From: an uncultured Bacteroides sp. | Lineage (GTDB): Bacteria; Bacteroidota; Bacteroidia; Bacteroidales; Muribaculaceae | Assembly: GCA_964560625.1 (NCBI GenBank) | Contig: CAZLMV010000001.1 | Span: forward strand, 3,601 to 36,144 | Length of the DNA: 32,544 nt | Reading direction: 5' to 3' | Part shown: piece after piece, positions 5,645-25,898 of the stretch | Numbering within the stretch: position 1 is the first letter of the stretch | Layout: the number at the start of each line of letters is the position of its first letter | The notes under the pieces: model-generated | Told to the model about the DNA's origin: nothing | Database searches by the model: none | Seen by the model: the letters and a program-made list of their open reading frames with translations, nothing else | Position numbers and translations under genes: made by a program

Positions 5645-5680
5645 ATAAAGAAAATGATGAATGGTTTAAAAATTTCTCCA

Positions 5681-5688
5681 CAAAGTTA
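5681..5688 (-). promoter_or_regulatory. Bacteroidota -7 promoter box TAACTTTG for the hexosaminidase-mtaB-GT2 operon
   Basis: The minus-strand sequence is TAACTTTG, matching the TAnnTTTG consensus. It lies 37 nt upstream of the ATG at 5644. Confidence 0.55.
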
Positions 5689-5723
5689 CGAATAAATATC
5701 GGAAGTTGAAAATGAATTGCCAA

Positions 5724-7196: not shown

Positions 7197-7209
7197 TTAC
7201 GTTGCCGTT

Positions 7210-11148: not shown

Positions 11149-12222
11149 ATGAAGAAATTACTCTTATTTTCAGCTTTGGCAGTGGCGTTGACTGCCTGCA
11201 ATGAGTCTAACGAGCCGAAAAAGGCCGAAATTGATAGCGCCGTGATTGATTACACGGCCGAAAATGCCGACGCCTGGGGCAACTACATGGTCCAAGTGAG
11301 CTCCCTGCTTAAGGCCGACGCGCAGACGCTGATTGACTCCTGGACCACCGGGGGCTATGCTGCGCAATTCAAGGCCTTGGCGCCGTTTGACTGCGTCGAG
11401 CAGATGATTGACGGGTGTGCCGACATCGCCAACGAGGTCTGCACCGCCAAGATTGGCGACCCCTATAACCTCTACCTTTCCGGCGACACCAAGCGCGCCC
11501 TCTATGCCGTAGAATCCTGGTATTCATGGCATTCCCGCGAAGATTATGCGAACAATATCCTCTCCATCCGCAATAGTTTCTGTGGCTCGCTCGACGGCAC
11601 GGTTCACCCCGAATCGCTCGCCGCAATGATTGACCCCGCACTGAGTGCAGACGTCGCCACCGCCATTTCTGCCGCCGAATCAGCCATCTTGGCCATTCCG
11701 CAGCCCTTCCGCTCGAACATCACCTCCACTGAAAGTCGCATGGCCATGAACGCTTGCGCCGACCTCGAGGAAATCCTCTCCGTCAATCTCAAATCGGCCG
11801 CTCGCAAGCTCTCTGAGACGCAACTCCGCGCCATTGCTGACCGCTTTGTCGACGCTGTGGTGATTCCCACTTACACCGACCTTGCCGCTCGCAACGCTGC
11901 TCTGCATCAGTCAGTTACGGCCCTGCGCGACAATCCCTCCGACGCCGCTTTTGCCGCCGCCTGCTCCGCCTGGCTCGAAGCCCGCGAACCCTGGGAGAAG
12001 TCCGAGGCCTTCCTCTTCGGCCCGGTAGATGCTCTCGGCCTTGATCCGAACATGGATAGCTGGCCCTTGGACCAGGACGCCATTGTGCAAATCCTCTCCT
12101 CCGGCAATTTCTCCGGCCTGAGCGGCACGAGCGAGGCCGTGCAGAGTGTGCGCGGATTCCATACCCTCGAATTCCTCCTCTTCAAGGACGGCATGCCCCG
12201 CTTAACAATATTGAGTGAATAA
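11149..12222 (+). CDS. Imelysin-family (peptidase M75-like) lipoprotein
   Basis: It has a lipobox (LTAC) and an all-helical two-domain sequence. The family GxHxxE motif is present as GFHTLEFLLF (HxxE at 12160-12171). Its genomic partner is a DUF1111 di-haem protein. Confidence 0.8.
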   Translation: MKKLLLFSALAVALTACNESNEPKKAEIDSAVIDYTAENADAWGNYMVQVSSLLKADAQTLIDSWTTGGYAAQFKALAPFDCVEQMIDGCADIANEVCTAKIGDPYNLYLSGDTKRALYAVESWYSWHSREDYANNILSIRNSFCGSLDGTVHPESLAAMIDPALSADVATAISAAESAILAIPQPFRSNITSTESRMAMNACADLEEILSVNLKSAARKLSETQLRAIADRFVDAVVIPTYTDLAARNAALHQSVTALRDNPSDAAFAAACSAWLEAREPWEKSEAFLFGPVDALGLDPNMDSWPLDQDAIVQILSSGNFSGLSGTSEAVQSVRGFHTLEFLLFKDGMPRLTILSE

Positions 12223-13632
12223 ATGAATGCAATAATCAGATTCTTGGCCGCGTCGTCGTCGCTGTTGCTGCTCTCGGGCTGCGACGACGGCGGCCTTGAT
12301 TCGCTCTCCATCGAGATTCCGGAAGGGTATGAGCTCTCGGCGGGGACTTCGACGAATTTCCTCAACTCCTCCGTGGCCTATGATGCTGAGGCACCGTGGG
12401 TTAAGGGCGATTACCTGACGCGATTCGTGCGCGGCGACAGGCTCTATGACGACGTGCGCACCTCCTCCTCCGGCCAGGGCGGCGGCCTCGGTCCCGTCTA
12501 TGCCGGATATTCCTGTGGCAGCTGCCATCGCAACGCCGGGCGCACTCGCCCCGGTAACCTTGAAGGCTCCGGAAATTACGGCTTTTCCTCTATGTTAGTG
12601 TACGTTACGCGCAGAAACGGCGCCTTTTTCCGCGATTATGGCCGCGTTCTTCATGACCAAGCGATCTATGGCGTCGAAGCCGAAGGAAAACTCAAAGTCG
12701 ACTGGACCTACGAGCAATTCGCCTTCCCTGACGGCGAACCCTACGAACTTGCCACTCCGCATTACACCATCACCGACTGGTATGCCGACGACATAGCTCC
12801 CGAGGACCTTTTCTGCTCCGTGCGCATCCCCTTGCGCCACGTCGGCATGGGTCAGATGATGGCCCTTGACCCTACGGAAATCGAGGCCTTGGCCGCAAAG
12901 AGCAATTATCCCGAATGGGGCATCTCCGGCCGCTGCAACTACATCACCGAGCGCGGAGTGCGCCGGTTAGGACTGTCCGGCAACAAGGCCCAACACGCCG
13001 ATTTGACCGTAGAACTCGGCTTTTCCAGCGACATGGGCGTCACCAATAGCCGCTATCCGGAAGAGATTTGCGAGGGCCAACTCCAAATGTCGCAAGGCTC
13101 GATGATGGGCCTGACCTACGATCGCCTCGACATCTCCACCGAAGATATGGAAAACGTGGACCTCTACATGCAGAGCCTCGGAGTTCCCGCGCGCCGCGAT
13201 GTCAATGACCCGCAAGTGCGCCGCGGCGAGGCCGCCTTCTTTGAGGCGGGGTGTCACCTCTGCCATGTGACGACGCTCCACACGCGCCCGCGCGGCTCCA
13301 CTCTCCTTGCGGGCACTCAGCTCCCCTGGCTCGGCAATCAGACCGTCCACCCTTACAGCGACTTCCTGCTCCACGACATGGGGCCTGACCTTGATGACCA
13401 TTACCCCTCCGGACTCGCCGCCGGCAATGAGTGGCGCACGACTCCCCTCTGGGGCATCGGCCTGCAAGAAAAGGTCAATGGCCACACTTACTTCCTCCAC
13501 GACGGGCGCGCCCGCAACCTCACGGAGGCGATTATGTGGCATGGTGGCGAGGGACAGGCCTCGCGCAACAGATTCAAAAACATGGAGGCCGACAAGCGTC
13601 AGGCCCTCATCCGATTCCTTCAATCATTATGA
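12223..13632 (+). CDS. DUF1111-family di-haem cytochrome c lipoprotein (cytochrome c peroxidase-like / 'thiol oxidoreductase')
   Basis: It has a lipobox (LLSGC) and two CxxCH haem-binding motifs: CGSCH at 12514-12528 and CHLCH at 13252-13266. Other DUF1111-typical blocks are present (RTTPLWG, FLHDGRA). Confidence 0.85.
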   Translation: MNAIIRFLAASSSLLLLSGCDDGGLDSLSIEIPEGYELSAGTSTNFLNSSVAYDAEAPWVKGDYLTRFVRGDRLYDDVRTSSSGQGGGLGPVYAGYSCGSCHRNAGRTRPGNLEGSGNYGFSSMLVYVTRRNGAFFRDYGRVLHDQAIYGVEAEGKLKVDWTYEQFAFPDGEPYELATPHYTITDWYADDIAPEDLFCSVRIPLRHVGMGQMMALDPTEIEALAAKSNYPEWGISGRCNYITERGVRRLGLSGNKAQHADLTVELGFSSDMGVTNSRYPEEICEGQLQMSQGSMMGLTYDRLDISTEDMENVDLYMQSLGVPARRDVNDPQVRRGEAAFFEAGCHLCHVTTLHTRPRGSTLLAGTQLPWLGNQTVHPYSDFLLHDMGPDLDDHYPSGLAAGNEWRTTPLWGIGLQEKVNGHTYFLHDGRARNLTEAIMWHGGEGQASRNRFKNMEADKRQALIRFLQSL

Positions 13633-14834
13633 AAAAACTTCTACTTTCTTTCGCTTTAATTCTCAGTGGCTCAGTCGCTTCGGCTCAGTATGATTCAGAT
13701 AATGGAGTGGTCTCCATTGCCGACGAGCGAGGGTTTATTTTCCAGTCCAAGAGCGGCGACTTCGTGTTCAAGCCTTACCTCTTGGTGCAGACGTCGGCCA
13801 ATTTCAATTGGTATGACGACGCCGGCTTGGATCCCGCTTATAATCAGGACAATGTGGCCAACAGCGGCTTTGCCATCCCCTATGCGGTGCTCGGATTCAC
13901 GGGCAAAGCCTTCGGGATTGTCAACTTCAATCTCTCCATCAATGCTGCCGGGTCGGGTGGGGCGATCCTCCAGCAGGCCTGGGCCGACATTTGCCCGCGC
14001 CCGGAGGTGGGGGTGAAGATCGGTAAGTTCAAAACTCCCTTCACTCATGCTTATCTGACCACTCTCGGCGAGACCCTTTTCCCCGTAATGCCCACGTCGC
14101 TAACTGCCTCAGTGATTATGCCTTACTCGCTCAATGCCGTCACTCCGCATATCGGCACGGGCTTTGACCTCGGAGTGGAGGTCCATGGCCTCGTGGCCAA
14201 CCGCTTTGGCTATCAAGCGGGGATTTTTAACGGCACCGGCGCCAGCATTAATGTAGCCAACAAAACCCTCAGCGACGACTGGCACATCCCCTCGCTGCTC
14301 TATGCCGGTCGACTGACCTGGCAACCCTATGGCGCCATGCCGGCCACCCAGGGCGACCCGCGCCGACTGACCATGAACAAGATGCTCGTGGGCCTGAGCG
14401 CGTCCATGAACGTTGAAAGCGAAAATGAGAGCACCAACGACCTGCGCATGGGTTTGGAATGGAGCTGGGTGCATAATCGCTGGTACTTCGGCGCCGAGGC
14501 TTACTGGATGCACGTAGGCTTCACTCGCCGCCAGAAAATTGACCGCTCCTTCAACTATTTTGGGGGCTACGTTCAGGCCGGCTGGTTTTGCTCTGACCGT
14601 GTGCAAATCGTTGGCCGCTACGACCTTTTCGAGCGCAATTCCACCTCCAAAGGGGGCTTGCTGAACATGCCCGCCATCGGCTGCAACTGGTTTTTCCCGA
14701 AAATTAACCTCAAGCTCCAGGGCATGGCGCAATTTACCGGTCGCACCGGCCATGCCCGCCAAATGGACCGCGACGAGGATAACCTTGGCCTGGCCACATG
14801 GTCAGCCGTAATCATGGCTCAATATGCGTTTTAA
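13629..14834 (+). CDS. Porin-like outer-membrane beta-barrel (OprO/P-like fold suspected)
   Basis: The ATG at 13629 overlaps the upstream stop (ATGA). The signal peptide is MKKLLLSFALILSGSVASAQ. The protein shows beta-strand periodicity and ends in the OMP-type aromatic residues ...AQYAF. The longer track ORF (from 13431) runs inside the previous gene. Confidence 0.6.
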   Translation: MKKLLLSFALILSGSVASAQYDSDNGVVSIADERGFIFQSKSGDFVFKPYLLVQTSANFNWYDDAGLDPAYNQDNVANSGFAIPYAVLGFTGKAFGIVNFNLSINAAGSGGAILQQAWADICPRPEVGVKIGKFKTPFTHAYLTTLGETLFPVMPTSLTASVIMPYSLNAVTPHIGTGFDLGVEVHGLVANRFGYQAGIFNGTGASINVANKTLSDDWHIPSLLYAGRLTWQPYGAMPATQGDPRRLTMNKMLVGLSASMNVESENESTNDLRMGLEWSWVHNRWYFGAEAYWMHVGFTRRQKIDRSFNYFGGYVQAGWFCSDRVQIVGRYDLFERNSTSKGGLLNMPAIGCNWFFPKINLKLQGMAQFTGRTGHARQMDRDEDNLGLATWSAVIMAQYAF

Positions 14835-15510
14835 GTGGATTTTGCCGCTCTTGGCCCTCTGCAGTTGCGACGAAGGGCGCATCTGGCCGGAGGAGGTTGC
14901 CGACTCTGCGTCCGAGGGGCTGACGGCGCGGGTGGAAATCGCCGATGCCGTCGGGGCCGACCGCTGGTTCAGCGGTTATTCGCTCGCCGTGGCCGGCTTT
15001 GCCCCCGGAAGTGAATATGCGCTGATTAGCAAGAATATAGAGCTCACGGAGGAGGGTTCGGCCTCGGTTGCGCTCACGGGGATTCCCGCGGAAGTGGAGA
15101 GCGTGGAGCTCTGCATCATTGACCGCCTGCGCCGACGCGTCGCCTCGTTTGAGTCCGTCCCCATGGCCTCCTCTGAGGTGACTCTCAGCTCCGTCGGCGC
15201 CGATTTTTCGCCCGAGCAAGTGATTCAGACTGAGGTGTTTAACACCACCTGCATCAACTGCCACGGCGGCGCCTCCTTCTCCGCCGCCGGACTGAACCTT
15301 ACCCGCGGCCATTCCTTCGAGGAACTCATCGGCGTGACCTCCGTGAAAAATCCGCAAATGCAGCGCGTCTGCCCCGGCGACCCCGACCGCAGCCTCCTCT
15401 ATCAAATTTTGGTCGGGCAGGACTCCAAGGAGTGGAATTATGACCATTCCGTGGAAATCACGGCCTCCGAGCGTTTGGATTTAATAAAAAATTGGATAAT
15501 TGCGCAATAA
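14824..15510 (+). CDS. Lipoprotein with a C-terminal single-haem cytochrome c domain (PSCyt1/'planctomycete cytochrome c'-like)
   Basis: It has a lipobox (LALCSC) and CINCH (CxxCH) at 15250-15264, in the context FNTTCINCHGG...LNLT...CPGDPDRSLLYQ. The start overlaps the preceding gene by 11 nt. Confidence 0.6.
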   Translation: MRFKWILPLLALCSCDEGRIWPEEVADSASEGLTARVEIADAVGADRWFSGYSLAVAGFAPGSEYALISKNIELTEEGSASVALTGIPAEVESVELCIIDRLRRRVASFESVPMASSEVTLSSVGADFSPEQVIQTEVFNTTCINCHGGASFSAAGLNLTRGHSFEELIGVTSVKNPQMQRVCPGDPDRSLLYQILVGQDSKEWNYDHSVEITASERLDLIKNWIIAQ

Positions 15511-16628
15511 TGACACTGTCGAAATCGTTTTTTAAGATAATGAACAGAAATATCAGTCATATGACTTTATCATATAACGACGCTTTGGCCGACACGGCTC
15601 TTTGCGGCGACCAACTTCATTGCATTATTACCCCCTCTGCCGGCCTAAGGTATGCTGACCAGGTCCGCGCGGTTTGTGAGGCGATAAGTCATCTGGAAGA
15701 ATATTATAAGATGACCCCGATTTTCAAGCGCTATTTCCTCAGCGACATTGCCAATCAGGCGTCGCTTTTGCCTGAGGATGAGCCTTGTGCGGTGTCCGTG
15801 ATTCAGCAGCCGCCTCTAAATGGCAGCAAGGTCGTGGTGTGGGTGGTCATGGAGCGAGATGCCGACTTCCGGCGCGAGGCCGACGGCGTGTGGGCCGACT
15901 CCAAAGGGCGCATTATCCAGGGAGATATGGAGCCCGCCGGCGGCGATTCGGCCGAGGAGACGCGCCGCTATTTGCGCCGCTTTTCCGAGGTCTTGACCGC
16001 AAGAGGCGGCTCGTTGGCAGACCATTGTCTGCGTACATGGTTTATGGTCCACGACGTTGACCGCAATTATGGCGGAGTGGTGCGCGGCCGCAACGAAGTC
16101 TTTGCCGAGCAGGGACTTAAGGAGCATTTCATTGCCTCCACGGGCATCGGCGGCTCGCCGGAAAAGTCGCTCGTAGCCTTCAACGCCATTGCTGATCTTT
16201 CTGTTAAACCCGAGCAAATCACCTATCTGAAAGGGGCCTCACACCTGAATCCCACCATCGAATATGGCGTGGCCTTTGAGCGCGCCACTGCCGTGGATTA
16301 TCCCGATTATCGCAAGGTCTACGTCTCCGGCACGGCGAGCATTGACAATAAAGGTCAGGTGGTTGCCGTGGGCGACATTGAGCGCCAAACCGAGCGGATG
16401 CTCGAGAATATTGAGGTCCTTCTCCGCGAGGCCGGCTGCGAGCTCACTGACGTGATGAGCTTCATCATTTACCTGCGCGATATTGCTGACTATGAGGCAG
16501 TAAAGTCGGTGTTTGACTATCGGCTTCCCTGCGCGCCAAAGGTGCTCCTTTTAGCGCCGGTTTGCAGGCCGCAATGGTTGGTGGAAACGGAGTGTATTGC
16601 CATTCGCCCTCATAATGCCTCGCGCTAA
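15510..16628 (+). CDS. RidA/YjgF (endoribonuclease L-PSP) family protein with a long N-terminal extension
   Basis: The C-terminal ~125 aa match the RidA pattern (VYVSGTASID..G.V...DIERQTERMLENIEVLLREAG..L.DV....IYL.D..DY......ETECIA). The start is uncertain: TTG 15492, ATG 15510 (TAATG overlap with the previous stop) or ATG 15540. Confidence 0.6.
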   Translation: MTLSKSFFKIMNRNISHMTLSYNDALADTALCGDQLHCIITPSAGLRYADQVRAVCEAISHLEEYYKMTPIFKRYFLSDIANQASLLPEDEPCAVSVIQQPPLNGSKVVVWVVMERDADFRREADGVWADSKGRIIQGDMEPAGGDSAEETRRYLRRFSEVLTARGGSLADHCLRTWFMVHDVDRNYGGVVRGRNEVFAEQGLKEHFIASTGIGGSPEKSLVAFNAIADLSVKPEQITYLKGASHLNPTIEYGVAFERATAVDYPDYRKVYVSGTASIDNKGQVVAVGDIERQTERMLENIEVLLREAGCELTDVMSFIIYLRDIADYEAVKSVFDYRLPCAPKVLLLAPVCRPQWLVETECIAIRPHNASR

Positions 16629-18228
16629 GTTGCTCCATTTGTCTCTGCTGCTGATGATTATCGGCGGCTGCTTGACGTGGCTCACCTCCGTGCGCGGTTC
16701 CGTGCATCTCACTCCCGGAGTGGAGATGCACGATTTTATCGACTCTGAGGGCGAACTGCGGAAGTTGCCTTTCTCCCTGACCCTCAAGGAGTTTCAGACG
16801 GATTATTACCCCGGCATGTCCTTCCCGCGCGATTTCCGCTCGATCCTGAGCGTGGATGGCCGCGACGTGGAGATTTCTATGAATAAGATTGGTCGCGTGG
16901 GCGCCTGGCGGATCTATCAGCAGTCGTTTGACGGCCGCGGCGGCTCCGTCGTGGAGCTGGTGCGCGACCCCTGGGGAATCCTTGTGGTTTACCTTGGATT
17001 CGCACTCTTTGCTATTGCCGGATTGCCGATGCTTTTCGGCCGTAAAGCCTTGTCTATTTGCGCGTTAACCGTTGGCCTTGGTGCCATGGCCGCGCCGATT
17101 AACGAGGAGCAGCAAGTGGTGTTCAATGGTCGCGTCGTGCCGTATGCCACCGTGGCGTCCGAGCTGACCTTCAAACTCACCGGCAGTCAGAGCGTTGGCG
17201 GCATGAACCCCTCGCAGTTCGTCTATTCGCTGATGGAGTATCCGCAGCTCTGGGCCGAAAAGCCGTTTTTGAAGACCAAGGCGGGTTATGTCTCCCCCGC
17301 GTCGCTCTATGACGCTGACGGTCAATACATTCCGCAGCTGAAATATCGAGGCGGCGAGGGGAAAGACGACGCCGAATTGCTACGCATCGACGAAAAAATC
17401 GCCCTCTTGGGTCAGCTTTGGCAAGGGGAACTCTTCACCCCCGCGCCGCCCGAAAGTCAGCGCTCGCAGGCCTCCATACGCGCCGAGGTGATTTACGTTA
17501 AGATTCAGCCCGTCAAGTGGTTTTTCATGCTTGTGCTGACCCTCGGATTGCTGAGCATGATATGGAGCCGATTGGCCCGACGTTCGGCCATTGAGGCCTT
17601 AGTTTTGGCTGCGGGAATCTTTGCATGGCGCTGGTGGATAGCGGGTTATTGTCCCGTGGTCGGCACCGGCCAGGTGATGTTTTTCACCTCCGTTTGCCTC
17701 TGTGGTTGCGCCGTCGGGGTGGGGCGCAAATATCCTTTTGCGGCGGCTCTGGCGCTCGTGATGGCCGGATTTACCGCCCTAATCTCCTGGCTCAATGTCA
17801 AAAATCCGTCAATGACGCCCCTGATGCCGGTGCTCAACTCCCCCTGGCTGTCGATTCATGTCTCGCTCGTGATGATTGCCTATGCGCTGTTAGCCATGGT
17901 CAGTTTTCTCTCCTTGGCGTCGCTTTTCCGCCGACGCTTCCTCGTTCCGGCGCAAAAACTGCTTCCCATCGGGGTCTATTTCCTCGGCCTCGGAATCATT
18001 GTCGGCGCTATGTGGGCCAACGTTTCCTGGGGCCGCTACTGGGGCTGGGACCCAAAGGAAACCGCCGCCCTGATAACCTTCATAGCCTATAGCCTCCCCC
18101 TCCACCAATGGATCAAACCCCTAAAATCCCCCCGCCCCAAAGCCATCTACCTAACCGCCGCCTTCACAACCATCCTCCTAACCTACCTCGGCGTCAACTA
18201 CCTCCCCTCCCTCCACTCTTACCAATGA
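16615..18228 (+). CDS. ccsBA: Fused CcsBA (ResB-like + CcsA) system II cytochrome c synthase
   Basis: The Trp-rich haem-handling WWD motif WGRYWGWDPKE is at 18028-18060. The N-terminal region is ResB-like (FSLTLKEFQTDYYPG...RDFRS...YQQSF) and there are multiple TM helices. The ATG at 16615 overlaps the end of the RidA-like gene. Confidence 0.85.
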   Translation: MPRAKLLHLSLLLMIIGGCLTWLTSVRGSVHLTPGVEMHDFIDSEGELRKLPFSLTLKEFQTDYYPGMSFPRDFRSILSVDGRDVEISMNKIGRVGAWRIYQQSFDGRGGSVVELVRDPWGILVVYLGFALFAIAGLPMLFGRKALSICALTVGLGAMAAPINEEQQVVFNGRVVPYATVASELTFKLTGSQSVGGMNPSQFVYSLMEYPQLWAEKPFLKTKAGYVSPASLYDADGQYIPQLKYRGGEGKDDAELLRIDEKIALLGQLWQGELFTPAPPESQRSQASIRAEVIYVKIQPVKWFFMLVLTLGLLSMIWSRLARRSAIEALVLAAGIFAWRWWIAGYCPVVGTGQVMFFTSVCLCGCAVGVGRKYPFAAALALVMAGFTALISWLNVKNPSMTPLMPVLNSPWLSIHVSLVMIAYALLAMVSFLSLASLFRRRFLVPAQKLLPIGVYFLGLGIIVGAMWANVSWGRYWGWDPKETAALITFIAYSLPLHQWIKPLKSPRPKAIYLTAAFTTILLTYLGVNYLPSLHSYQ

Positions 18229-18234
18229 GGCGGG

Positions 18235-19368
18235 TTAGAGGGGTTTGATGAAGGAGCGGCGGCGTTTGTGTTGCTCGTAGTCGAAGTATTCCCATTGCGA
18301 CTGGACGTTGGTGTTGGTTTCCAGCTCGGGGTTGGTTTCGGCGGCGATGAATCCGCATTTCTGGAACGACGGAATCATGTTTTCGAAGAGCAGGGCGTTG
18401 ACTCCCTTGCCTTGATATTCCGGCTTGATGGCCACGAGCATCAGATCGACATAGTCGGTCTTGCCGAATTTCAGGGCCTTGAGGAGCGGATACCACCCGA
18501 AGGGAAGGAGTCGGCCGCGAGATTTTTGCAGCGCGCGGCTCAGCGAGGGCACGCTGATGCCTACGCCGACGAGGTTGTCCTCCTTATCAACAATCACGCA
18601 GACGCCGTCAAGGCGAATCAGCCCCAAGTACATGTCAATGTAATGGTCAATCTGGCGCGGAGTCAGCGGCGAATAGCCGTAGAGTTTGTCGTAAGCCTCG
18701 TTGATCACCTCAAACAGGGCGTGGCCATAACGTTCGGCAAGGAGCTTGCGCGAGGTCAGCTTGACCGTGTGCAGGCCGAAGCGCTTGCGCACAATCTCGG
18801 CCACGCGGCGCATCTTTTCCGGTATCTCATCAGGCACTTTCACCAAGAATTCCACCCAGTCGGCCTCTTTTTGGAAGCCGAGGCGCTCCATGTGTTTGGG
18901 ATAGTAGGGGTAGTTATAAATCGTGGCCATGGTGCCGAGGCGGTCAAAGCCTTCAATGAGCATTCCTTCATAGTCCATGTCGGTGAATCCGAGCGGACCC
19001 ACGAGGTGGTCCATCCCTTTTTCGCGTCCCCAGGCGCTGACCGTGTCAAACAGGGCGTCGACAACTTCCTCGTCGTCAATAAAGTCGACGAATCCGAAGC
19101 GGGCATCCTTGCGGCCGGTGCGCTCATTGACCGTGGAATTGATGATTCCGGCAATGCGGCCCACGGGTTTGCCGTCGCGATAGGCCATCCAGCAGCTACA
19201 TTCGCAGAAGTCAAAGGCCGGGTTGCCTTCGGGGCGCAGGGTGTTGACGTCGTCGCTGACCAACGGGGGCACGTAGCAGTCGTTGTCTTTGTAAAGGTCA
19301 ATGGCGAAGTCTACGAATTTGGTGAGTTCCTTCTTTGTGAGGGGTATCTGTTTAATTTCTACTGACAT
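18235..19368 (-). CDS. Two-domain GNAT-like acyl-CoA N-acyltransferase, substrate unknown
   Basis: A GNAT motif-A-like segment VAIKPEYQGKGVNALLFE lies in the C-terminal half. The N-terminal half is also acyltransferase-like (RIAGIIN...ARFGFVDFIDD). It is the last gene of the asnC operon. Confidence 0.55.
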   Translation of the reverse strand: MSVEIKQIPLTKKELTKFVDFAIDLYKDNDCYVPPLVSDDVNTLRPEGNPAFDFCECSCWMAYRDGKPVGRIAGIINSTVNERTGRKDARFGFVDFIDDEEVVDALFDTVSAWGREKGMDHLVGPLGFTDMDYEGMLIEGFDRLGTMATIYNYPYYPKHMERLGFQKEADWVEFLVKVPDEIPEKMRRVAEIVRKRFGLHTVKLTSRKLLAERYGHALFEVINEAYDKLYGYSPLTPRQIDHYIDMYLGLIRLDGVCVIVDKEDNLVGVGISVPSLSRALQKSRGRLLPFGWYPLLKALKFGKTDYVDLMLVAIKPEYQGKGVNALLFENMIPSFQKCGFIAAETNPELETNTNVQSQWEYFDYEQHKRRRSFIKPL

Positions 19369-19374
19369 GGTCTT

Positions 19375-20109
19375 TTAGGGATGATTGGTTACGATGACGG
19401 CGGCGAGGGCGGCCACCATGAGCGTCAGCGCCGTGATGATATAAATATAGAAGCGTGAGGTTGAGCCGCCGTGGAGGGCTACCTGGAGCTGCTGCACCGT
19501 GCGGTAAGGGTTCGGGCCGACGCATTTTTCGGCCACGGAGCGCAGATGGGGGTTCGGCTCGGGGCAGGCATCGAGAGCCTGCAGAAGGACGTGGCCAAAG
19601 TTACGGATATCTTCCGTAGTGTCAGCCACTTCCAACACGTTTTTCTGGTCAAAACCCACGTCGATGAGCTTGAGGTTGCGAATCTTCTCGGTAAAGATGA
19701 TCGACGAGGCCTTGATCGGGTGGTGGACAATATGGTTGGTCTGGATGTAATCAATGGCGTCAGGCACGCAGCGGGCTATTTTCTTGACGATATCCTCGGT
19801 CACTTCGCCGCGGGCTATGAGCTTTTCCAACGAGTCGCCATAGACGTCGTCGGTGATGATACACATGCCCAATCCGGGCACCTCCTCTAAGTCATTAATC
19901 ATAATGATATGGGCGTGGGCGAGGTTATATCTCACCTCAAACTCGCGGTTGAGCATGGATTGATATTCGGGGTTGTCGCGATACTCAGGTTTGAGGGTTT
20001 TGAGCATCACCCACTTACCGAACTTCTTGCCGGTGTAGACGTCATAGAAGTCCTCGCTCCATTCGGGCAGGAGCTCCAGCTCGGTCCATTTGTCCTTAGG
20101 GTCTGTCAT
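19375..20109 (-). CDS. Membrane-anchored protein-kinase-like protein with degenerate catalytic loop (predicted pseudokinase)
   Basis: Kinase-fold landmarks are present: beta3 Lys (VMLKTLK), alphaC Glu (LNREFEV) and hinge (IITDDVYGDSL). The catalytic loop reads IVHHPIKASSI instead of HRDLKxxN (HHP at 19717-19725). A DFG-like IDVGF follows. There is no Gly-rich loop and no APE segment, and the protein ends in a C-terminal TM anchor. Confidence 0.5.
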   Translation of the reverse strand: MTDPKDKWTELELLPEWSEDFYDVYTGKKFGKWVMLKTLKPEYRDNPEYQSMLNREFEVRYNLAHAHIIMINDLEEVPGLGMCIITDDVYGDSLEKLIARGEVTEDIVKKIARCVPDAIDYIQTNHIVHHPIKASSIIFTEKIRNLKLIDVGFDQKNVLEVADTTEDIRNFGHVLLQALDACPEPNPHLRSVAEKCVGPNPYRTVQQLQVALHGGSTSRFYIYIITALTLMVAALAAVIVTNHP

Positions 20110-20576
20110 ATGTTAGGGGGAGGGAGTATGGGGATTTCGCGGTCAATGCTGGAATCCAGCGATATGAGGGTTTCGGTGCCGGTCACTCCGGGAATCATCT
20201 GGATGCGGTCGTTGAGCAGTTGCATCAGGTGCTCATTGTCGCGGGCAAAGAGCTTGATGAGCATCGTGTAAGGCCCGGTGGTGTAATGACATTCAACCAC
20301 TTCGGGGATGTTTTGCAGATGAGGCACGGCGTCACGATACATTGCGCCCCTTTCGAGGTTCACGCCAATGTAAGTGCAGGTGGTGAATCCGAGGAATTTC
20401 GGGTTGACGTTATAGCCGGAGCCGGTGATGACGCCCAAGTCGATCATCCGCTGGATGCGCTGATGGATTGCGGCACGGCTGACGCCACATTCCGCGGCGA
20501 CATCTTTTGAGGGTATTCGCGCGTTGCGAATGACGATGTTTAATATCTTTTTGTCTAAGGAATCAAGCAGTTCCAT
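20106..20576 (-). CDS. Lrp/AsnC-family transcriptional regulator
   Basis: It has the N-terminal HTH (LDKKILNIVIRNARIPSKDVAAECGVSRAAIHQRIQRM) and a C-terminal RAM/ligand domain. I chose the ATG at 20576 because the -7 box at 20601-20608 excludes the TTG at 20603. The stop overlaps the next start (ATGA at 20106-20109). Confidence 0.88.
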   Translation of the reverse strand: MELLDSLDKKILNIVIRNARIPSKDVAAECGVSRAAIHQRIQRMIDLGVITGSGYNVNPKFLGFTTCTYIGVNLERGAMYRDAVPHLQNIPEVVECHYTTGPYTMLIKLFARDNEHLMQLLNDRIQMIPGVTGTETLISLDSSIDREIPILPPPNI

Positions 20577-20596
20577 AATGTAATTCATAAAAAAAC

Positions 20597-20632
20597 GTTG
20601 CAAAAGTAGCTATTTTTGCTGACTTTTGCAAC
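20597..20632 (-). promoter_or_regulatory. asnC promoter (-7 box TACTTTTG, 20601-20608) embedded in an 11-bp perfect inverted repeat (candidate operator)
   Basis: gttgcaaaagt (20597-20607) and acttttgcaac (20622-20632) are exact reverse complements. The left arm overlaps the TAnnTTTG box. Confidence 0.5.
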
Positions 20633-20669
20633 ATTTTGCTCAAAAAAATGATGTTTTGCCTAATTTTTT

Positions 20670-20972
20670 TTAGTCGGGGAGGATGACGGTCATTTGGCCA
20701 TTGGCCTTATTGACCATGTACATGGAGTTGGGGGTGACGATGGCCATGTGAGAGCCAAAATCGTGGGCCCCGCAGATGCGCTCAATCTCAATTGACTTCA
20801 GGGGTCCTTCACCCTTAAGGAAGGTCAGGCGGTCGCCGTCGAAGTCCACAAAGGGGGAGTCGATGGCAAAGTCCATCAGCTCGTGCATGTTGCGGTCAGC
20901 AACCACATCGGCGTTGGCGGGCAGGGAGTTGTATTTGTCAAAGATGATATTTACGAGATCAGTAGTAATCAT
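20670..20972 (-). CDS. Hypothetical cytoplasmic 100-aa protein
   Basis: The ORF runs from ATG 20972 (MITTDLVNIIF...). The N-terminal 34 codons of the track ORF look non-coding (low complexity). It has no signal peptide and I recognise no family. Confidence 0.45.
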   Translation of the reverse strand: MITTDLVNIIFDKYNSLPANADVVADRNMHELMDFAIDSPFVDFDGDRLTFLKGEGPLKSIEIERICGAHDFGSHMAIVTPNSMYMVNKANGQMTVILPD

Positions 20973-21118
20973 AATATTGTAAGTTTTAGTGTTGTTAAGT
21001 TCGTTGTTTCGTTCTTTCGTAGGCTTAACAAGCCCCCTCGGGGAAAGGTTTGTGTTGTTACAGCTTTGTAACATCTTTTTGACTTCTTTGTATCAATCCG
21101 CCCCTTTTTTAACAAAAC

Positions 21119-23110
21119 TTAGTAGGTAATGGTCAGGAAAAACTGGAAATTGATGCCCGGCATAGGGTGGCTCAGCACCGACATATAGTCCTCGTTAAAG
21201 AGGTTATTGACGGCAAATTCCATGTGCAAACTTAGCGGTTTGAGGCGCAGCGAACGGCTCAGCGAGACGTTGCTCATATAATAAGGAGGGAGGTAGCCGG
21301 TCAGTGTCGGCGAGTCGGTCGACATGGTGTAACGCCGCGAATAGTGGTTCCACTTATAAGTAAAAGCCCACTTTCGCCAGCTCAGTCGCCCAATAACCGA
21401 GGCCGAAACGCGCGGCTGATAGGGCAGCTGCCGACCAATGGAGCGGTCGGCCTCCGAAACCGGGTCGCCTTCATTAATTGAGGGAGTCCAGCTCCAGGAG
21501 CCGCTGAGGTCTAAGAGCCAGTCTTCATTTGGGCGCCAGAGGAGGTCGGCCTTGGCTTCGAGGCCGTAAGAATGTACGCGCTTGACGTTTTTAGGCGAAA
21601 AATAGCCGCGCGGCGTCGGGAGCCAGAGAATCCAGTTGTTCACGCGGTTTTCAAACCATGTCAGGGAGCCGGAAAGGTGCACTTGGCGGCTGAGAGGGAG
21701 GGAGAATGAGGCGCCGAAGTCGTAGTTAAACCCCTGCTCATCTTTGAGTTTAGGGTTGCCGCCGGGGAGGAAATAGAGGTCGTTTAGGGTGGGGACGCGA
21801 TGGTTTCGCGCCGCCGAGGCCTTGAGGGAGAGGTTTGAGGGCTGGTGGATCAGGAAGTCGGCAAAGAGTGCCGGAGTAAGTGGCGCAAACCGTTGGCCGA
21901 CAAGGTTTTGCCGCAGTGTAGCGCCGACTCCCAAGCGGCTGAGCGGCTGCCAGCGGGCGGTTGCGGCAAGGGAAAGCTCCGGGCGCGAGCGGTCAAATCC
22001 GGCTCCCGTGAGCAGGTCGCGGGAGTTGACAAAGTTATCCTCAAAGGTCAGCGAGGCGTTGAGCAGCAGATTGTTGCGCACGAAGAAGTCGGCCTCCACA
22101 GCCGCCGAGAGGGAGTTTTGGCGCGAGCGCGTCTGCGCCATGCTGACGTTCATTCCCGCGGCCACTTCCCGCTTGTAGTCATAGCGGCGCAGGGCGTTTT
22201 CATAGCCTATGCGGGCCTTTAACTGCCAGTGATTAAGTGGGATAGACATTGAGGCCGTGGCGCGCAGTGTGCGCTCGCGGTTGAGATTCAGAAACTCCGA
22301 GTCGGCGCCATAGTCAGTGGTGAGCATCGGCAGATGTCGCCGCAGGTTGGAGTACCACACGGCCATCTCCAATCGGGAGCCGCGAGTCGACGTGTAATAG
22401 ACCTCCTGCATCAGGTGGAGGTCGGCATACGCGCCGCTGCGGTTGCGCTCCCGCGGGTGATATTGACCCACGATATTATGGTCTGAGTCGTAGATATTCA
22501 GCTTTTTATCGTGGTTGGTAAAGGGATAGCGATTGGGCGACGAGGAGAATTTCGCGCGGGTTTTGAATTGCCAGCCTTTGGTGGCGTAACTTAGTTTGGC
22601 AAACTCGTCGAAGGCCCAAAAAGAGCCTACTCCCTGAGAGTATTGCGCATGAAATCCGTCGGCATCGTCGGCCGCGGTGGCGAGGCTGACGGCGCCGCCC
22701 AACCCGCCGGTACCGATGGCCACGGAGGTGGCGCCGTGGCTCACGTCCGCGCGGTCAATCAGAAAGGAGGGGATGGTGGAGAAATCGGTCATGCCCGACA
22801 TGGGGCTGTTCAGTCGCAAGCCGTTCCAGAGCACCTGAGTATGAGCCGCCGAGGTGCCGCGGATGCTGACGGTGGAGAGGGTAGCGCGCCCATGATTTTT
22901 GACGAAGAGAGCTGTGTTAAATGCCAATATATCAGCCATTGAGAGCGCCGTGTTCTCCTTTAAAGCCATGGAGTCGAGGCGAGTGAGCTGCGAGCCTATT
23001 TGCGTCAGCGGGCGCCGCGCCGTCACCGTCACCTCATTGAGGCTCCGGGGCGACTGGCCCGAGGCGGTCAATGCCGCCAAAAGCAACGTAAACAGGGCTA
23101 ATCTCCTCAT
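21119..23110 (-). CDS. btuB: TonB-dependent outer membrane receptor, BtuB-like (no SusC-type N-terminal extension)
   Basis: It has a signal peptide, a TonB box/plug (EVTVTARRP...), a 22-strand-barrel-sized protein and a terminal aromatic (...LTITY). It is the last large gene of a cobalamin-riboswitch-controlled operon. Confidence 0.8.
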   Translation of the reverse strand: MRRLALFTLLLAALTASGQSPRSLNEVTVTARRPLTQIGSQLTRLDSMALKENTALSMADILAFNTALFVKNHGRATLSTVSIRGTSAAHTQVLWNGLRLNSPMSGMTDFSTIPSFLIDRADVSHGATSVAIGTGGLGGAVSLATAADDADGFHAQYSQGVGSFWAFDEFAKLSYATKGWQFKTRAKFSSSPNRYPFTNHDKKLNIYDSDHNIVGQYHPRERNRSGAYADLHLMQEVYYTSTRGSRLEMAVWYSNLRRHLPMLTTDYGADSEFLNLNRERTLRATASMSIPLNHWQLKARIGYENALRRYDYKREVAAGMNVSMAQTRSRQNSLSAAVEADFFVRNNLLLNASLTFEDNFVNSRDLLTGAGFDRSRPELSLAATARWQPLSRLGVGATLRQNLVGQRFAPLTPALFADFLIHQPSNLSLKASAARNHRVPTLNDLYFLPGGNPKLKDEQGFNYDFGASFSLPLSRQVHLSGSLTWFENRVNNWILWLPTPRGYFSPKNVKRVHSYGLEAKADLLWRPNEDWLLDLSGSWSWTPSINEGDPVSEADRSIGRQLPYQPRVSASVIGRLSWRKWAFTYKWNHYSRRYTMSTDSPTLTGYLPPYYMSNVSLSRSLRLKPLSLHMEFAVNNLFNEDYMSVLSHPMPGINFQFFLTITY

Positions 23111-24162
23111 TTCCAGCAGAAAAATGTGGGTGTTACCCCGGCATAAAAGTGACTGATAAGCTCGCCGGAGGACGTATAGCGGTAAATCATCCCCGGCTGC
23201 TGATAATCTATGGCATCAGCAAGGTAAATCTCGCCCGACTCGGGCTCAACCGAGAGCGCATAATATATGGTGCCGCGCGAAGGAATCAGCGGCTCGGAGG
23301 GTAGGGCGGTGGCAGTGACGGGCATGGACATCACGTCGTCGTTGAGCCAGTAGAGCGTCTGCCCGTCGGGGCTGAGAGTGAGGCCTCGAGGGGTGTCGCC
23401 CGGGGTAAAATCAAGGCGAAAATCCACGGTCATGGTTGCGGCGTCAATGCGGAACAGTGCCGGTGTTTCCCAGCCCGTGGGCGAGCCGTCGTAGCCGCCG
23501 TCGGTGATGGTCCAGAGCTTGCCGTTGGCGTCGATTACTAACGAATTAGGTTGCAGTCCCACAGCGACTTGCGCATCGACCACGTCCCGCTCCGAGTCGA
23601 TGCGGATGATACGGTTTTGGTAGCTCCAGCAGTTGCAGTAGACGTATTTTCCCCGCTGGACCATGCGCTCCGTTGACCCCACTGACGCCTCCATGCCCGG
23701 CACGTCAATGGCCCCGGTCACGGAGTAAGTCTGCGGGTTGAAAATCAGGATGCGGTTGTCCCAAAGCTGGGTCACGTAGGCCTTCTCCGGCGAGATGAAA
23801 TGCACATAACGCGGCGAAGTCAACCCCTCAACGCGCCCGGTTTCGCGCAGCGTGGTCAGGTCAATTGCAAACACTGCGTGGGAGTTATTGACGGCAATCC
23901 AGCCGCGATTACCGCCGATGGTCATTGACTGGGCTACGTCGCCGAGTTTCATCCCGTTGGCGCGGTAAAATACTTCGTTTTCCACCCGGTCCGTAGCCGG
24001 GTCATAGAAGCTCAGAGTGGCGTTGCCATACTGGAAATTGCCCTCGCAGACAATGAAAAGACCCTGCGGCGGGCAGGAAAATTCTTCCTCCTCGCCGTAG
24101 TCCCAGCGCATGCACCCCGTCAGGAGCAGCATGCCGGCAATTATAACTCCTTGAAGCCGCAA
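23107..24162 (-). CDS. btuG: Beta-propeller surface lipoprotein, BtuG-like (YncE-type repeats)
   Basis: The TTG start gives the lipoprotein signal MRLQGVIIAGMLLLTGC. Repeated propeller-blade-like segments are visible. It sits immediately upstream of, and overlapping, btuB, as BtuG does in the Bacteroides B12 loci. Confidence 0.6.
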   Translation of the reverse strand: MRLQGVIIAGMLLLTGCMRWDYGEEEEFSCPPQGLFIVCEGNFQYGNATLSFYDPATDRVENEVFYRANGMKLGDVAQSMTIGGNRGWIAVNNSHAVFAIDLTTLRETGRVEGLTSPRYVHFISPEKAYVTQLWDNRILIFNPQTYSVTGAIDVPGMEASVGSTERMVQRGKYVYCNCWSYQNRIIRIDSERDVVDAQVAVGLQPNSLVIDANGKLWTITDGGYDGSPTGWETPALFRIDAATMTVDFRLDFTPGDTPRGLTLSPDGQTLYWLNDDVMSMPVTATALPSEPLIPSRGTIYYALSVEPESGEIYLADAIDYQQPGMIYRYTSSGELISHFYAGVTPTFFCWK

Positions 24163-24938
24163 ACTTCCGTGGATATTTCGCCGAGGGCGCCCGCTTGGGC
24201 ATTGACGGCGGTTTGCACTTTGATGAAGTCAACGGGCGCGCTAAGATGGAATTCCGTCCATTGCTTTTGGGTGTCAGAGCCGGAATTATCCACGTAGCCC
24301 CAGGGGTAAGGCTGGTGGTTCCAGCGGCCGTTTTCCTCCACGGAAAGTGAGGGGAGGAGAGTGCCGCTCAGGGTGTAGGAGTCGGCCGCGATCCATGCCG
24401 GATAGTAATAATCTTGCTTATGGAAGGAGGGAACGTAGGCAATCTCGCCGCTATTGCCCTGATTATCAGTCCATTTTACAGGGCTTTTCGGCTCGGCGGG
24501 GCGATAGTAGGTGATTTGATAGTTGGCGATGGTGCCGGCTTCTTGGCTGTGGGGCAGTTCAACCCAGACGCCGTCGTCGGGCAGGCCGTTGCCGTTTGCG
24601 TCGGTCATGGCGTAGACTATTCCCGGCTCGTTGGAGCCCGCGAAGTTGTTGCCTTTGATGGCGAAGTTTTTGACGCTGTGGCCCGGGTCAAAGATGATGT
24701 ATCCGCCGAAGCCGCCTAAGGAGACGAATTTTTCCTCGGCGAGGCGCTCTTCGGCCCAGAGGATAGCCTCTTCGGGGGTGGTGGCGGTCATCCCTTCGTT
24801 GATGAATTGGCCGGGCGCAGGAGTGTAGTTTAGCACGCGAAATTCGCCGCGCTCGCGCCCGGATTCGGTCGGGTCATCCGTGCTGCAAGAGGCTAATAGG
24901 ACGCAACCTAAGGCTAAAAGGAGGGTGGATTTTTTCAT
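24141..24938 (-). CDS. Surface lipoprotein of unknown function in the B12 operon
   Basis: It has a lipobox (LLASCS), is 265 aa and is tightly packed between the DUF4465-like gene and the BtuG-like gene. Confidence 0.55.
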   Translation of the reverse strand: MKKSTLLLALGCVLLASCSTDDPTESGRERGEFRVLNYTPAPGQFINEGMTATTPEEAILWAEERLAEEKFVSLGGFGGYIIFDPGHSVKNFAIKGNNFAGSNEPGIVYAMTDANGNGLPDDGVWVELPHSQEAGTIANYQITYYRPAEPKSPVKWTDNQGNSGEIAYVPSFHKQDYYYPAWIAADSYTLSGTLLPSLSVEENGRWNHQPYPWGYVDNSGSDTQKQWTEFHLSAPVDFIKVQTAVNAQAGALGEISTEVCGFKEL

Positions 24939-24941
24939 GTC

Positions 24942-25898
24942 TTAGCGAATGATTTTCAGGAGTTCAGAGCCTGATTTGATGAGGTAAACACCGGCGGCTG
25001 CTCCGGAGAGGTCGAGGCGACCGGATTCGGCGGAGGCAACGAGGCGACCGGCGCAATCATAGGCGGCAAGAAAGCCGTCGGCAGTGGCTACGCATGAGGC
25101 GGCGTCATATTTCAGCGACGAGGTTTTGGCGGCTGAAATGGATGCTGCGGGGGCGGTTTCTGCTGTGAGTTTGTCCATGGCGAAGTAGCAGGGGGTGTTG
25201 ATGCCCCATTCGCCGGTGTCGGTACTGTTCATGGTGAAATAGAGCTGATTGACGGCACCTAAGGAGCTGAGGTCCACGTACTTCCAGCCGCGATTGATGG
25301 TCAGGTCGGCGTCGGCATATGAGGCCAAGGTCACTTCCACGGTCTTTTCATTTTCGGCGGCGTCGACGCCATGGATAATGAGCGTCAGGCGGTCACCGTT
25401 GGTGAATTCGCGGCAGAAGTCATCGCCCTGTTCCACGGTGTAATACGTATAACTCGTCAGGTTGAAATATGCGCCTTTGACCTCGTGGGGCAGTCCGTCA
25501 GTAAAGGTCAGGGAGCATGCTTTTTCGCCATAATAGGGACCGTAAAAGCCTACCAAATAGGGCATTGCGGGGCTGATTTCGGCGGGGAGAACTAATCCGC
25601 CGGCGGCCATGTTGGAGAACTGGAATTTCACCGGGTTTTCGCGCATGGAGTTGTCAGCCGAGTTGGAGGCCGTGAAGCCGTTCCAGCTCATCCATTCGCT
25701 GTTGGCGGCATGGCTCATGCGGAAAATTTGCGACTCAATGACCGTGGCGGCGTCATTGTAGGTCTCGGTCCAGGCGCCTGTCTCGGGGCTGAATTCAAGG
25801 GGAGTGGTCGACTTTGAAAGGTCAAGTACGGTGACGTCGGCGGCAGCCGTGGCCGTCAGTGCGCAAGCAATGAGTGATGAAAAAATCAGTCGGTTCAT
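24942..25898 (-). CDS. DUF4465/BtuH-like secreted protein carrying a T9SS C-terminal sorting domain
   Basis: It has a signal peptide and a W.GF..SN..D-type block (MSWNGFTASNSADNS). The C-terminal ~70 aa match the Por-secretion tail pattern (...YDCAGRLVASAESGRLDLSGAAAGVYLIKSGSELLKIIR). It is the first gene after the riboswitch. Confidence 0.55.
   Translation of the reverse strand: MNRLIFSSLIACALTATAAADVTVLDLSKSTTPLEFSPETGAWTETYNDAATVIESQIFRMSHAANSEWMSWNGFTASNSADNSMRENPVKFQFSNMAAGGLVLPAEISPAMPYLVGFYGPYYGEKACSLTFTDGLPHEVKGAYFNLTSYTYYTVEQGDDFCREFTNGDRLTLIIHGVDAAENEKTVEVTLASYADADLTINRGWKYVDLSSLGAVNQLYFTMNSTDTGEWGINTPCYFAMDKLTAETAPAASISAAKTSSLKYDAASCVATADGFLAAYDCAGRLVASAESGRLDLSGAAAGVYLIKSGSELLKIIR

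Follow-up and report, generated by a model that had tools for sequence, protein, structure and literature searches.

A tail-anchored pseudokinase encoded beside a tandem GNAT acyltransferase in Muribaculaceae

What is a membrane-anchored, kinase-like protein with a degenerate catalytic loop doing directly in front of an acyltransferase gene? The question is raised by a stretch of 32,544 nucleotides (nt) of contig CAZLMV010000001.1 (assembly GCA_964560625.1), from an uncultured Bacteroides sp. of the Muribaculaceae; this whole stretch is referred to as the window. On its minus strand lie, head to tail, the genes for an Lrp/AsnC regulator, a kinase-like protein of 244 amino acids (aa) and a 377-aa acyltransferase of the GNAT type. 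An initial annotation of the window had described the three genes as tightly packed, and both the 4-nt overlap between asnC and the kinase-like gene (ATGA, 20106–20109) and the 6-nt gap between the latter and the GNAT gene (19369–19374) are confirmed by the gene coordinates:

20106–20573, minus strand: asnC, Lrp/AsnC-family transcription regulator, 155 aa from the ATG at 20573
19375–20109, minus strand: pseudokinase gene, 244 aa, tail-anchored, with a cytoplasmic Hanks-type fold, a minimal C-lobe and one C-terminal transmembrane (TM) helix
18235–19368, minus strand: GNAT gene, 377-aa soluble tandem (two-domain) GNAT acyltransferase

The best protein matches bear names such as Muribaculaceae bacterium. 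The core of the locus is a two-gene unit specific to the Muribaculaceae, made up of the tail-anchored pseudokinase and a tandem GNAT which is found across the Bacteroidales.

Pairing of the pseudokinase and GNAT genes

A genome scan with the pseudokinase (one genome per species) returned more than 300 relatives, the best 80 of which were examined; all of them are of the Muribaculaceae type, and all 80 loci have the GNAT gene immediately downstream of the pseudokinase gene, on the same strand. A metagenome scan was conducted with the GNAT as query, and of the 71 loci with room upstream, 42 have a pseudokinase and 29 do not. The 80 genome loci and the 45 further pairs from the metagenome scan make up a set of 125 pseudokinase–GNAT loci. 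The GNAT follows the pseudokinase in each of the 45 and therefore in 125 of 125 overall, and no pseudokinase without a GNAT was seen among these loci. The median gap between the two genes is 24 nt, and a Bacteroidetes –7 box is present in only two of the 125 gaps. The coupling of the kinase-like protein to an acyltransferase, which had been proposed from the window sequence, is supported by these counts. Outside the pair, 33 clusters of upstream genes and 39 of downstream genes can be distinguished, and since the adjacency of the GNAT is constant, the pair has stayed together while its surroundings moved. Upstream genes at other loci include those for a DUF4919 lipoprotein, a RecD-like helicase and an alkaline phosphatase, among others. 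The most frequent of these upstream genes is that for DUF4919 (13 of 78 loci).

The GNATs of the pseudokinase-free loci are 55–60% identical to that of the window. Exact-sequence look-up places them in Barnesiella, Bacteroides togonis, Parabacteroides distasonis, Porphyromonas, Mediterranea, Phocaeicola plebeius, Coprobacter and Prevotella/Alloprevotella, where they are named only “N-acetyltransferase” or “hypothetical protein”; in these loci, the gene for a type IIA topoisomerase B subunit often follows the GNAT gene. Judging by this conservation, the GNAT is an old, pan-Bacteroidales enzyme. Because it stands alone across the other Bacteroidales, we take the pseudokinase to be a later accessory acquired in the Muribaculaceae.

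No sequencing run containing the window was listed, and transcript data were instead taken from locus L025, a 58%-identical relative. Single contigs from two mouse-gut metatranscriptomes, spanning positions 5128–7720, cover the DUF4919 gene, the pseudokinase gene and most of the GNAT gene; their starts nearly coincide (5128 and 5135), and their depth is 4–10 times that of the upstream flank. This supports co-transcription of the pair in L025, although the contigs are assembled and may include DNA. As a separate observation, two contigs (L017 and L018) of a single metagenome-assembled genome, WFMA01, each carry a pseudokinase–GNAT pair, with 61% and 58–59% identity to the window, so that either the pair is duplicated or the bin mixes strains.

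The two proteins and the descent of the pseudokinase

The kinase-like protein matches the Pfam kinase family PF00069 with 53.1 bits (cut-off 31.7; E 3.9e-14), residues 24–156 covering profile positions 15–147, and a sequence search of the PDB returns kinases at E 1e-8. An AlphaFold2 (AF2) model built from 59 homologues, with a predicted local distance difference test (pLDDT) score of 85.8 and a predicted template modelling score (pTM) of 0.75, has the N-lobe strands, the alphaC, alphaE and alphaF helices, a short helical C-lobe and a terminal helix (217–242). When this model is submitted to Foldseek, the kinases PknB, PknI, B-Raf and FGFR are matched at probability 1.0 (TM-score 0.5–0.63). The middle protein of the window is a true Hanks-type kinase fold, and the kinase-likeness on which the initial annotation depended has held at the level of both profile and structure. 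The residues relevant to catalysis and anchoring are encoded as follows:

19999–20001, minus strand: codon of K37, the beta3 (VAIK-type) Lys, in VMLK37, aligned to the VAIK Lys of TSSK6; Lys in 125/125 members
19942–19944, minus strand: codon of E56, the alphaC Glu, from the PDB kinase alignment; Glu in 125/125 members
19702–19725, minus strand: degenerate catalytic loop HHPIKASS, residues 129–136, replacing HRDLKPEN, with Pro for the catalytic Asp and Ser (S136) for the Asn
19654–19662, minus strand: DVG, residues 150–152, at the DFG position, followed by a truncated activation segment
19390–19446, minus strand: C-terminal TM helix, residues 222–240, IYIITALTLMVAALAAVIV, with a Kyte-Doolittle 19-residue maximum of 2.64 and a 4-residue tail after it

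The kinase alignment, with K37, E56 and DVG, agrees with the earlier reading that the protein keeps the beta3 Lys, the alphaC Glu, the hinge and a DFG-like Asp. It equally agrees on what has been replaced: HHP (residues 129–131, 19717–19725) stands at the HRD position and Ser at that of the catalytic-loop Asn, HHPIKASS being aligned to HRDLKCEN in the PDB kinase alignments. The HRD Asp is found in none of the 125 members, 119 of which have Pro instead, and the catalytic-loop Asn in only 14; the residue at the DFG position (D150 in the window) is Asp in 110 and Asn in 15. The Gly-rich loop GxGxxG is absent, the corresponding stretch reading EDFYDVYTGKKFGKW, and so is the APE/P+1 activation segment, as a 21-residue gap relative to the active relative P0257 removes ..AGT..Y.APE; the pLDDT drops to ~53 at residues 150–160. 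The alignment gap and the hydropathy profile are therefore in accordance with the description of a protein that lacks these two elements and ends in a C-terminal TM anchor. With a kinase fold in which the HRD Asp is replaced (the VAIK Lys and the DFG Asp being kept in the window), the protein qualifies as a pseudokinase by the usual, sequence-based definition. Canonical protein phosphorylation is not expected, since the catalytic Asp, the Asn and the activation/P+1 segment have been lost. Other acidic residues are also retained, D87 and D88 of the hinge being invariant and D154, after DVG, conserved in at least 90% of members, and column conservation over the 125 members is 0.84–0.85 in the N-lobe and catalytic-loop region, compared to 0.5–0.6 in the C-lobe and TM helix. 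The protein has no match to Pfam APH (PF01636), and NCBIfam contains no specific family for either the pseudokinase or the GNAT.

For the third protein, Pfam recognises Acetyltransf_1 (28 bits) in residues 238–346 only, that is, in the C-terminal half. The AF2 model (pLDDT 90.8, pTM 0.88) nevertheless contains two GNAT folds, and the top 24 Foldseek matches are mostly tandem GNATs, with E-values of 1e-14 to 1e-9, a TM-score of ~0.6 and an identity of only 9–13%. They include MAB_4324 (PDB ID: 7q3a), a clavulanate-pathway protein (2wpw), the glucosamine N-acetyltransferase of C. acetobutylicum (5kf1), 4zm6, VipF (6wqc) and the mycothiol synthase MshD (1ozp). The two-domain GNAT of the initial annotation is thereby substantiated. 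No TM span was found in it by the Kyte-Doolittle method. One further element could be located:

18394–18414, minus strand: acyl-CoA pyrophosphate-binding motif QGKGVNA, residues 319–325, a one-substitution variant of Q/R-x-x-G-x-G/A

The motif aligns to QGKGVG in the GNAT region of 4zm6, with Asn at the last Gly/Ala position, followed by Ala. G322 and N324 are invariant in the family, and conservation reaches at least 90% at Q319, K321, V323 and A325. No CoA-binding motif could be read in the N-terminal half, where Pfam has no match either. In this the protein resembles MshD, in which the C-terminal domain is the catalytic one. By family, the protein would be an acyl-CoA-dependent acyltransferase. 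Like the proteins listed above, it has two folds per chain, but it is 40–60 residues longer than they are, and the low sequence identity means that no substrate can be transferred from them. Indeed, comparison with PDB sequences, either as a single sequence or as a profile, gave nothing below E 0.06, so that its relatives are found at fold level only, and no NCBIfam or PADLOC model identifies it more closely.

The variable flanks of the pair, together with matches of the kinase-like protein to the PD-T4-6 and MADS kinase models of PADLOC (E 1e-15 to 1e-9), could be taken as signs of a toxin–antitoxin or anti-phage defence module, in which the GNAT might be a toxin, say, or the kinase a defence protein. 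We regard this as extremely improbable. The PADLOC scores do not exceed that of the generic Pfam Pkinase model, whose match spans the same residues; PADLOC gives nothing for the GNAT, and the kinase-like protein is devoid of catalytic residues. In addition, a 377-aa tandem GNAT with 55–60% identity across Bacteroidales families is unlike the ~170-aa toxins of the TacT/AtaT type. Since PADLOC gave generic kinase-domain matches only, the defence reading was rejected.

The family profile was searched against 1.84 billion representative proteins. The short full-length form accounts for only two clusters at 50% identity. Next in rank (E 1e-42 to 1e-28) are membrane kinases of 400–550 aa in which the HRDLKPEN, DFG and APE motifs are intact, and which have a TM helix and, at the C-terminus, ~150 aa of extracytoplasmic sequence; some are named as serine/threonine protein kinases of Prevotella (P0255, P0257 and P0437 are examples, under “serine/threonine protein kinase [Prevotella sp.]”). 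The window pseudokinase is 34% identical to one of them, P0257, over 225 residues, and the single gap of 21 residues in the pseudokinase falls exactly at the activation segment, which is why we consider it a degenerate, truncated offshoot of an active receptor-kinase family of the Bacteroidales. Both share an additional N-terminal strand, the K–E pair and the EVPGLG..CII hinge region; in both, the C-lobe is minimal and the kinase domain is followed by a TM helix. The pseudokinase has inherited its small C-lobe, like its weak Gly-rich loop, from the active family. The losses relative to it comprise the catalytic Asp and Asn (replaced by the Pro of HHP and by Ser), the activation/P+1 segment (a deletion of ~20 residues) and the extracytoplasmic C-terminal domain. 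At the two loci of active relatives which were checked, no GNAT neighbour was found.

The active kinases themselves form a large family of Bacteroidales membrane Ser/Thr kinases with intact catalytic motifs (P0255, P0257, P0258, P0268, P0272 and P0284; loci L081–L085), with a degenerate Gly-rich loop (GY..LYKAKR.GKW) and an extracytoplasmic part of ~150 aa without a Pfam family; this family is apparently unstudied. A number of short “variants” (P0243–P0251) have C-terminal parts which are unrelated, of low complexity or out of frame, and were treated as frameshifted or chimeric assemblies.

The degeneration goes further in three of the loci. In L093, L120 and L122, the protein encoded directly before the GNAT is ~145 aa long and matches only positions 95–239 of the pseudokinase profile (E 3e-13, 5e-8 and 3e-6, respectively), a region that runs from alphaD onwards and includes the TM helix. 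The genes lie at 3530–3973 in L093, 3373–3804 in L120 and 1–342 in L122, where the contig end cuts the gene, and in none of the three loci is there room for an N-lobe upstream. The GNATs of this type are named as Muribaculaceae or Bacteroidales bacterium. The L120-type GNAT cluster contains 897 member sequences, so the C-lobe-only form is not rare. These lineages keep the helical C-lobe and the membrane anchor beside the GNAT. A 508-aa gene upstream in L093 was considered as a split N-lobe and discarded, as its match to profile positions 5–45 has an E-value of 0.21 and its product is a zinc-ribbon/TM protein.

These reduced forms bear on two alternatives to a role of the pseudokinase as a non-catalytic partner of the GNAT. 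One is that the kinase-fold protein is nucleotide-dependent, either as an ATP-binding switch of the GNAT or as an enzyme of an atypical kind, for instance a small-molecule kinase or a catalyst of some other nucleotide-dependent reaction, acting on the metabolite of the GNAT. There is precedent for the combination of a GNAT acyltransferase with a protein-kinase-like fold in enzymes of the AAC(6')-APH(2'') type, in which both act on one substrate; their APH domains are soluble and keep the catalytic Asp. The window protein differs from them in that it has no such Asp, is membrane-anchored, is a separate polypeptide and lacks a Pfam APH match. In favour of a nucleotide-dependent protein are the invariant beta3 Lys and alphaC Glu, the frequent Asp at the DFG position, the conserved acidic residues D87, D88 and D154, and a conservation that peaks in the N-lobe and the catalytic-loop region. 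Against this stand the catalytic Asp missing in every member, the scarcity of the catalytic-loop Asn, the lack of a Gly-rich loop and the C-lobe-only versions, which precede the GNAT without any of the ATP site. We therefore consider a nucleotide-dependent function rather unlikely, and the option of an atypical small-molecule kinase, which the initial annotation had kept beside that of a pseudokinase, is weakened by the absence of the HRD Asp throughout and by the lineages reduced to C-lobe and anchor.

The other alternative is that the two proteins are functionally unconnected: the pseudokinase gene would have been inserted before a housekeeping GNAT gene in the ancestor of the Muribaculaceae, sharing its transcript, and the protein would act elsewhere, for example as a dimerisation partner modulating active membrane Hanks kinases. 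PknB-type kinases are regulated via N-lobe dimers, and the pseudokinase retains the N-lobe of the kinase family; the GNAT, for its part, is alone and well conserved in other Bacteroidales. It is however difficult to reconcile such independence with an adjacency kept in all loci despite the reshuffling of every other neighbour, with the short gaps, and with the reduced C-lobe-only form holding the same position, and we judge it unlikely.

The AsnC regulator and the neighbouring genes

The initial annotation had included the regulator in the system and expected the three genes to be syntenic in related genomes. The pseudokinase and GNAT genes do stay together. AsnC does not follow: it is the immediate neighbour in only 8 of the 80 genome loci and 1 of the 45 metagenome loci (9 of 125 in total; L001–L007, L010 and L133), and the genome cases are the closest relatives of the window. 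A conserved three-gene module is thus contradicted, and given how few loci have it, AsnC is a lineage-specific upstream gene rather than a defining part of the system.

The open reading frame (ORF) obtained mechanically for asnC extends over 20106–20603 (minus strand), from a TTG at 20603. As the homologues begin at MELLDSL, the real start is likely the ATG at 20573 with which that sequence begins. The protein has an N-terminal AsnC-type HTH and a C-terminal RAM/AsnC ligand-binding domain, with Pfam scores above the cut-offs (AsnC_trans_reg, 67 bits; HTH_24, 53 bits; HTH_AsnC-type, 52 bits), and no TM span by Kyte-Doolittle. It scores 137 bits against the NCBIfam equivalog model of E. coli AsnC (NF008384), under the cut-off of 227, and by these scores belongs to the family without being an AsnC equivalog. 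Two elements were located upstream of its gene:

20592–20637, no strand assigned: imperfect palindrome with 16-nt arms (20592–20607 and 20622–20637), a 14-nt spacer and 94% complementarity
20598–20608, minus strand: Bacteroidetes-type –7 box TAnnTTTG (TACTTTTGCAA), ~25 nt upstream of the asnC ATG, kept in 9/9 aligned upstream regions

The pattern TAnnTTTG, which we take to be the Bacteroidetes –7 consensus, has three matches in the window, compared to 0.3 expected. The arms of the palindrome overlap both the –7 box (TAnnTTTGCAA) and a –33-like box (ACAAAATGTTGC), and both boxes are conserved in all nine aligned asnC upstream regions; the TTGCAA cores of the two arms are kept in most of the nine. 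Since these cores coincide with the promoter boxes, their conservation does not establish an AsnC operator, although the palindrome may possibly be one. Of the earlier claim that the three genes sit behind one promoter embedded in a palindrome, the palindrome is real and does overlap the –7 box, and a single promoter is plausible. In the sublineage of the window, asnC immediately precedes the pseudokinase gene and runs into its start, so that the asnC promoter probably also drives the pair there.

The model in which an amino-acid-responsive AsnC regulator, the pseudokinase and the acyltransferase constitute one functional operon can draw on this overlap, on the conserved promoter-like region with its palindrome and on the recurrence of the arrangement in the nine loci named above. 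With other upstream genes at the remaining pairs, and palindrome cores that are also generic promoter boxes, we find it very unlikely. The placement of AsnC is a local regulatory arrangement, outside the conserved system.

No functional clue comes from the genes around the pair, as the neighbours are housekeeping genes that differ between genomes. In the window, the GNAT side is adjoined by a convergent CcsBA-type cytochrome c biogenesis gene (16597–18228). The start of the latter is overlapped by a 378-aa ORF (15492–16628, plus strand) whose C-terminal domain is of the RidA/L-PSP type and which, over its full length, weakly matches FkbO/Hyg5 chorismatases (58 bits, far under the cut-off of 325). 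A 134-aa ORF (20670–21074, minus strand) has no family in Pfam or NCBIfam, and a relative, with 56% identity, only in L002 among the 80 loci. It lies between asnC and a cluster at 21119–25898 (minus strand) coding for a TonB-dependent receptor (Plug domain), a DUF5074 protein, a 265-aa protein without a family and a DUF4465 protein, which looks like an outer-membrane uptake locus. Further away, at 11149–14834 (plus strand), there is a row of Imelysin (Peptidase_M75), di-haem oxidoreductase (DHOR) and phosphate-selective-porin-like genes. The ORFs listed at 12223–13632 and 13431–14834 overlap by ~200 nt, and the start of the porin gene is therefore probably further downstream.

A possible role of the pseudokinase beside the acyltransferase

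The constant pairing suggests a dedicated partner protein. The reading we prefer, and to which we give about an even chance, is that the pseudokinase is a non-catalytic, membrane-tethered partner which localises or regulates the soluble GNAT at the inner membrane. The cytoplasmic kinase-fold domain would bind the GNAT, and the C-terminal helix would anchor the complex to the inner membrane on the cytoplasmic side, where it could localise or allosterically gate acyl transfer to a membrane-proximal acceptor. In the full-length forms, the conserved Lys–Glu pair and the N-lobe may add control by a ligand or nucleotide. An adaptor is favoured over an enzyme because the HRD Asp is missing in all 125 members and because proteins consisting of C-lobe and TM helix precede the GNAT in L093, L120 and L122; the topology, with one C-terminal TM helix in the pseudokinase and none in the GNAT, is in favour of it as well. 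The conservation of the N-lobe and catalytic loop, and the invariant Lys–Glu pair, suggest that the full-length forms have a sensing role as well, perhaps for a nucleotide.

Several points weigh against such a tether. The degree of conservation of the N-lobe and catalytic loop, with K37 and E56 invariant, is more than a passive tether needs, and points to ligand binding or some other N-lobe function. The GNAT works without a pseudokinase partner in most Bacteroidales, and adjacency alone could reflect shared regulation. The RNA evidence, moreover, consists of assembled contigs, possibly containing DNA, from the 58%-identical relative L025.

Each component of the locus falls within a known superfamily (Hanks kinases and pseudokinases, tandem GNATs, Lrp/AsnC regulators). 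Compared to the active Bacteroidales kinases, PknB and PknI of M. tuberculosis, which are the top structural matches of the pseudokinase, are more distant relatives. The same organism provides a parallel in MviN/MurJ (Rv3910), where a cytoplasmic pseudokinase domain is fused to a multi-pass flippase, is phosphorylated by PknB and binds FhaA. Both are membrane-attached degenerate Hanks-type domains, the one in MviN having a regulatory or scaffolding role, but the pseudokinase of the window is free-standing, single-pass and paired with an acyltransferase gene. Bacterial pseudokinases are, to our knowledge, rare in the literature, and we know of no description of a free-standing, tail-anchored one as the invariable partner of a metabolic acyltransferase. 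No account of the pseudokinase–GNAT pairing, in Bacteroidetes or in bacteria generally, was found in the literature searched, which is in line with the view of the initial annotation that the combination is not a described system.

As to the acceptor, one lead comes from bacterial ceramide synthases (bCerS/CerS; CCNA_01212 in C. crescentus), whose degree of conservation is similar to that of the GNAT. B. fragilis BF9343_4218 has been reported as the Bacteroides ceramide synthase (bioRxiv 10.1101/2023.05.23.541633), and the Bacteroides and Prevotella versions of bCerS are more than 50% identical (PMC10865984). By this analogy, the pan-Bacteroidales GNAT could be a membrane-lipid N-acyltransferase, with ceramide synthase, a peripheral inner-membrane enzyme without TM helices in Caulobacter, as the candidate, and the pseudokinase would be its recruitment or regulatory subunit, derived from a gutted Ser/Thr kinase. 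We think it improbable that this specific version is correct; all the GNAT orthologues found here have generic names only. If it were true, a metabolic enzyme would depend obligately on a bacterial pseudokinase as its membrane adaptor, and the conserved N-lobe of the latter might provide ligand control.

The pairing itself is solidly real and evolutionarily informative. In the mouse gut, the Muribaculaceae rank among the most abundant bacteria, and they are also common in other mammals; very few of their genes have been studied. The natural series from active receptor kinase to full-length pseudokinase to C-lobe with anchor could show which part of a kinase serves as an adaptor. A tandem GNAT of ~375 aa which keeps 55–60% identity across the Bacteroidales carries a generic name only, and the discovery of its substrate would annotate thousands of gut-microbiome genes.

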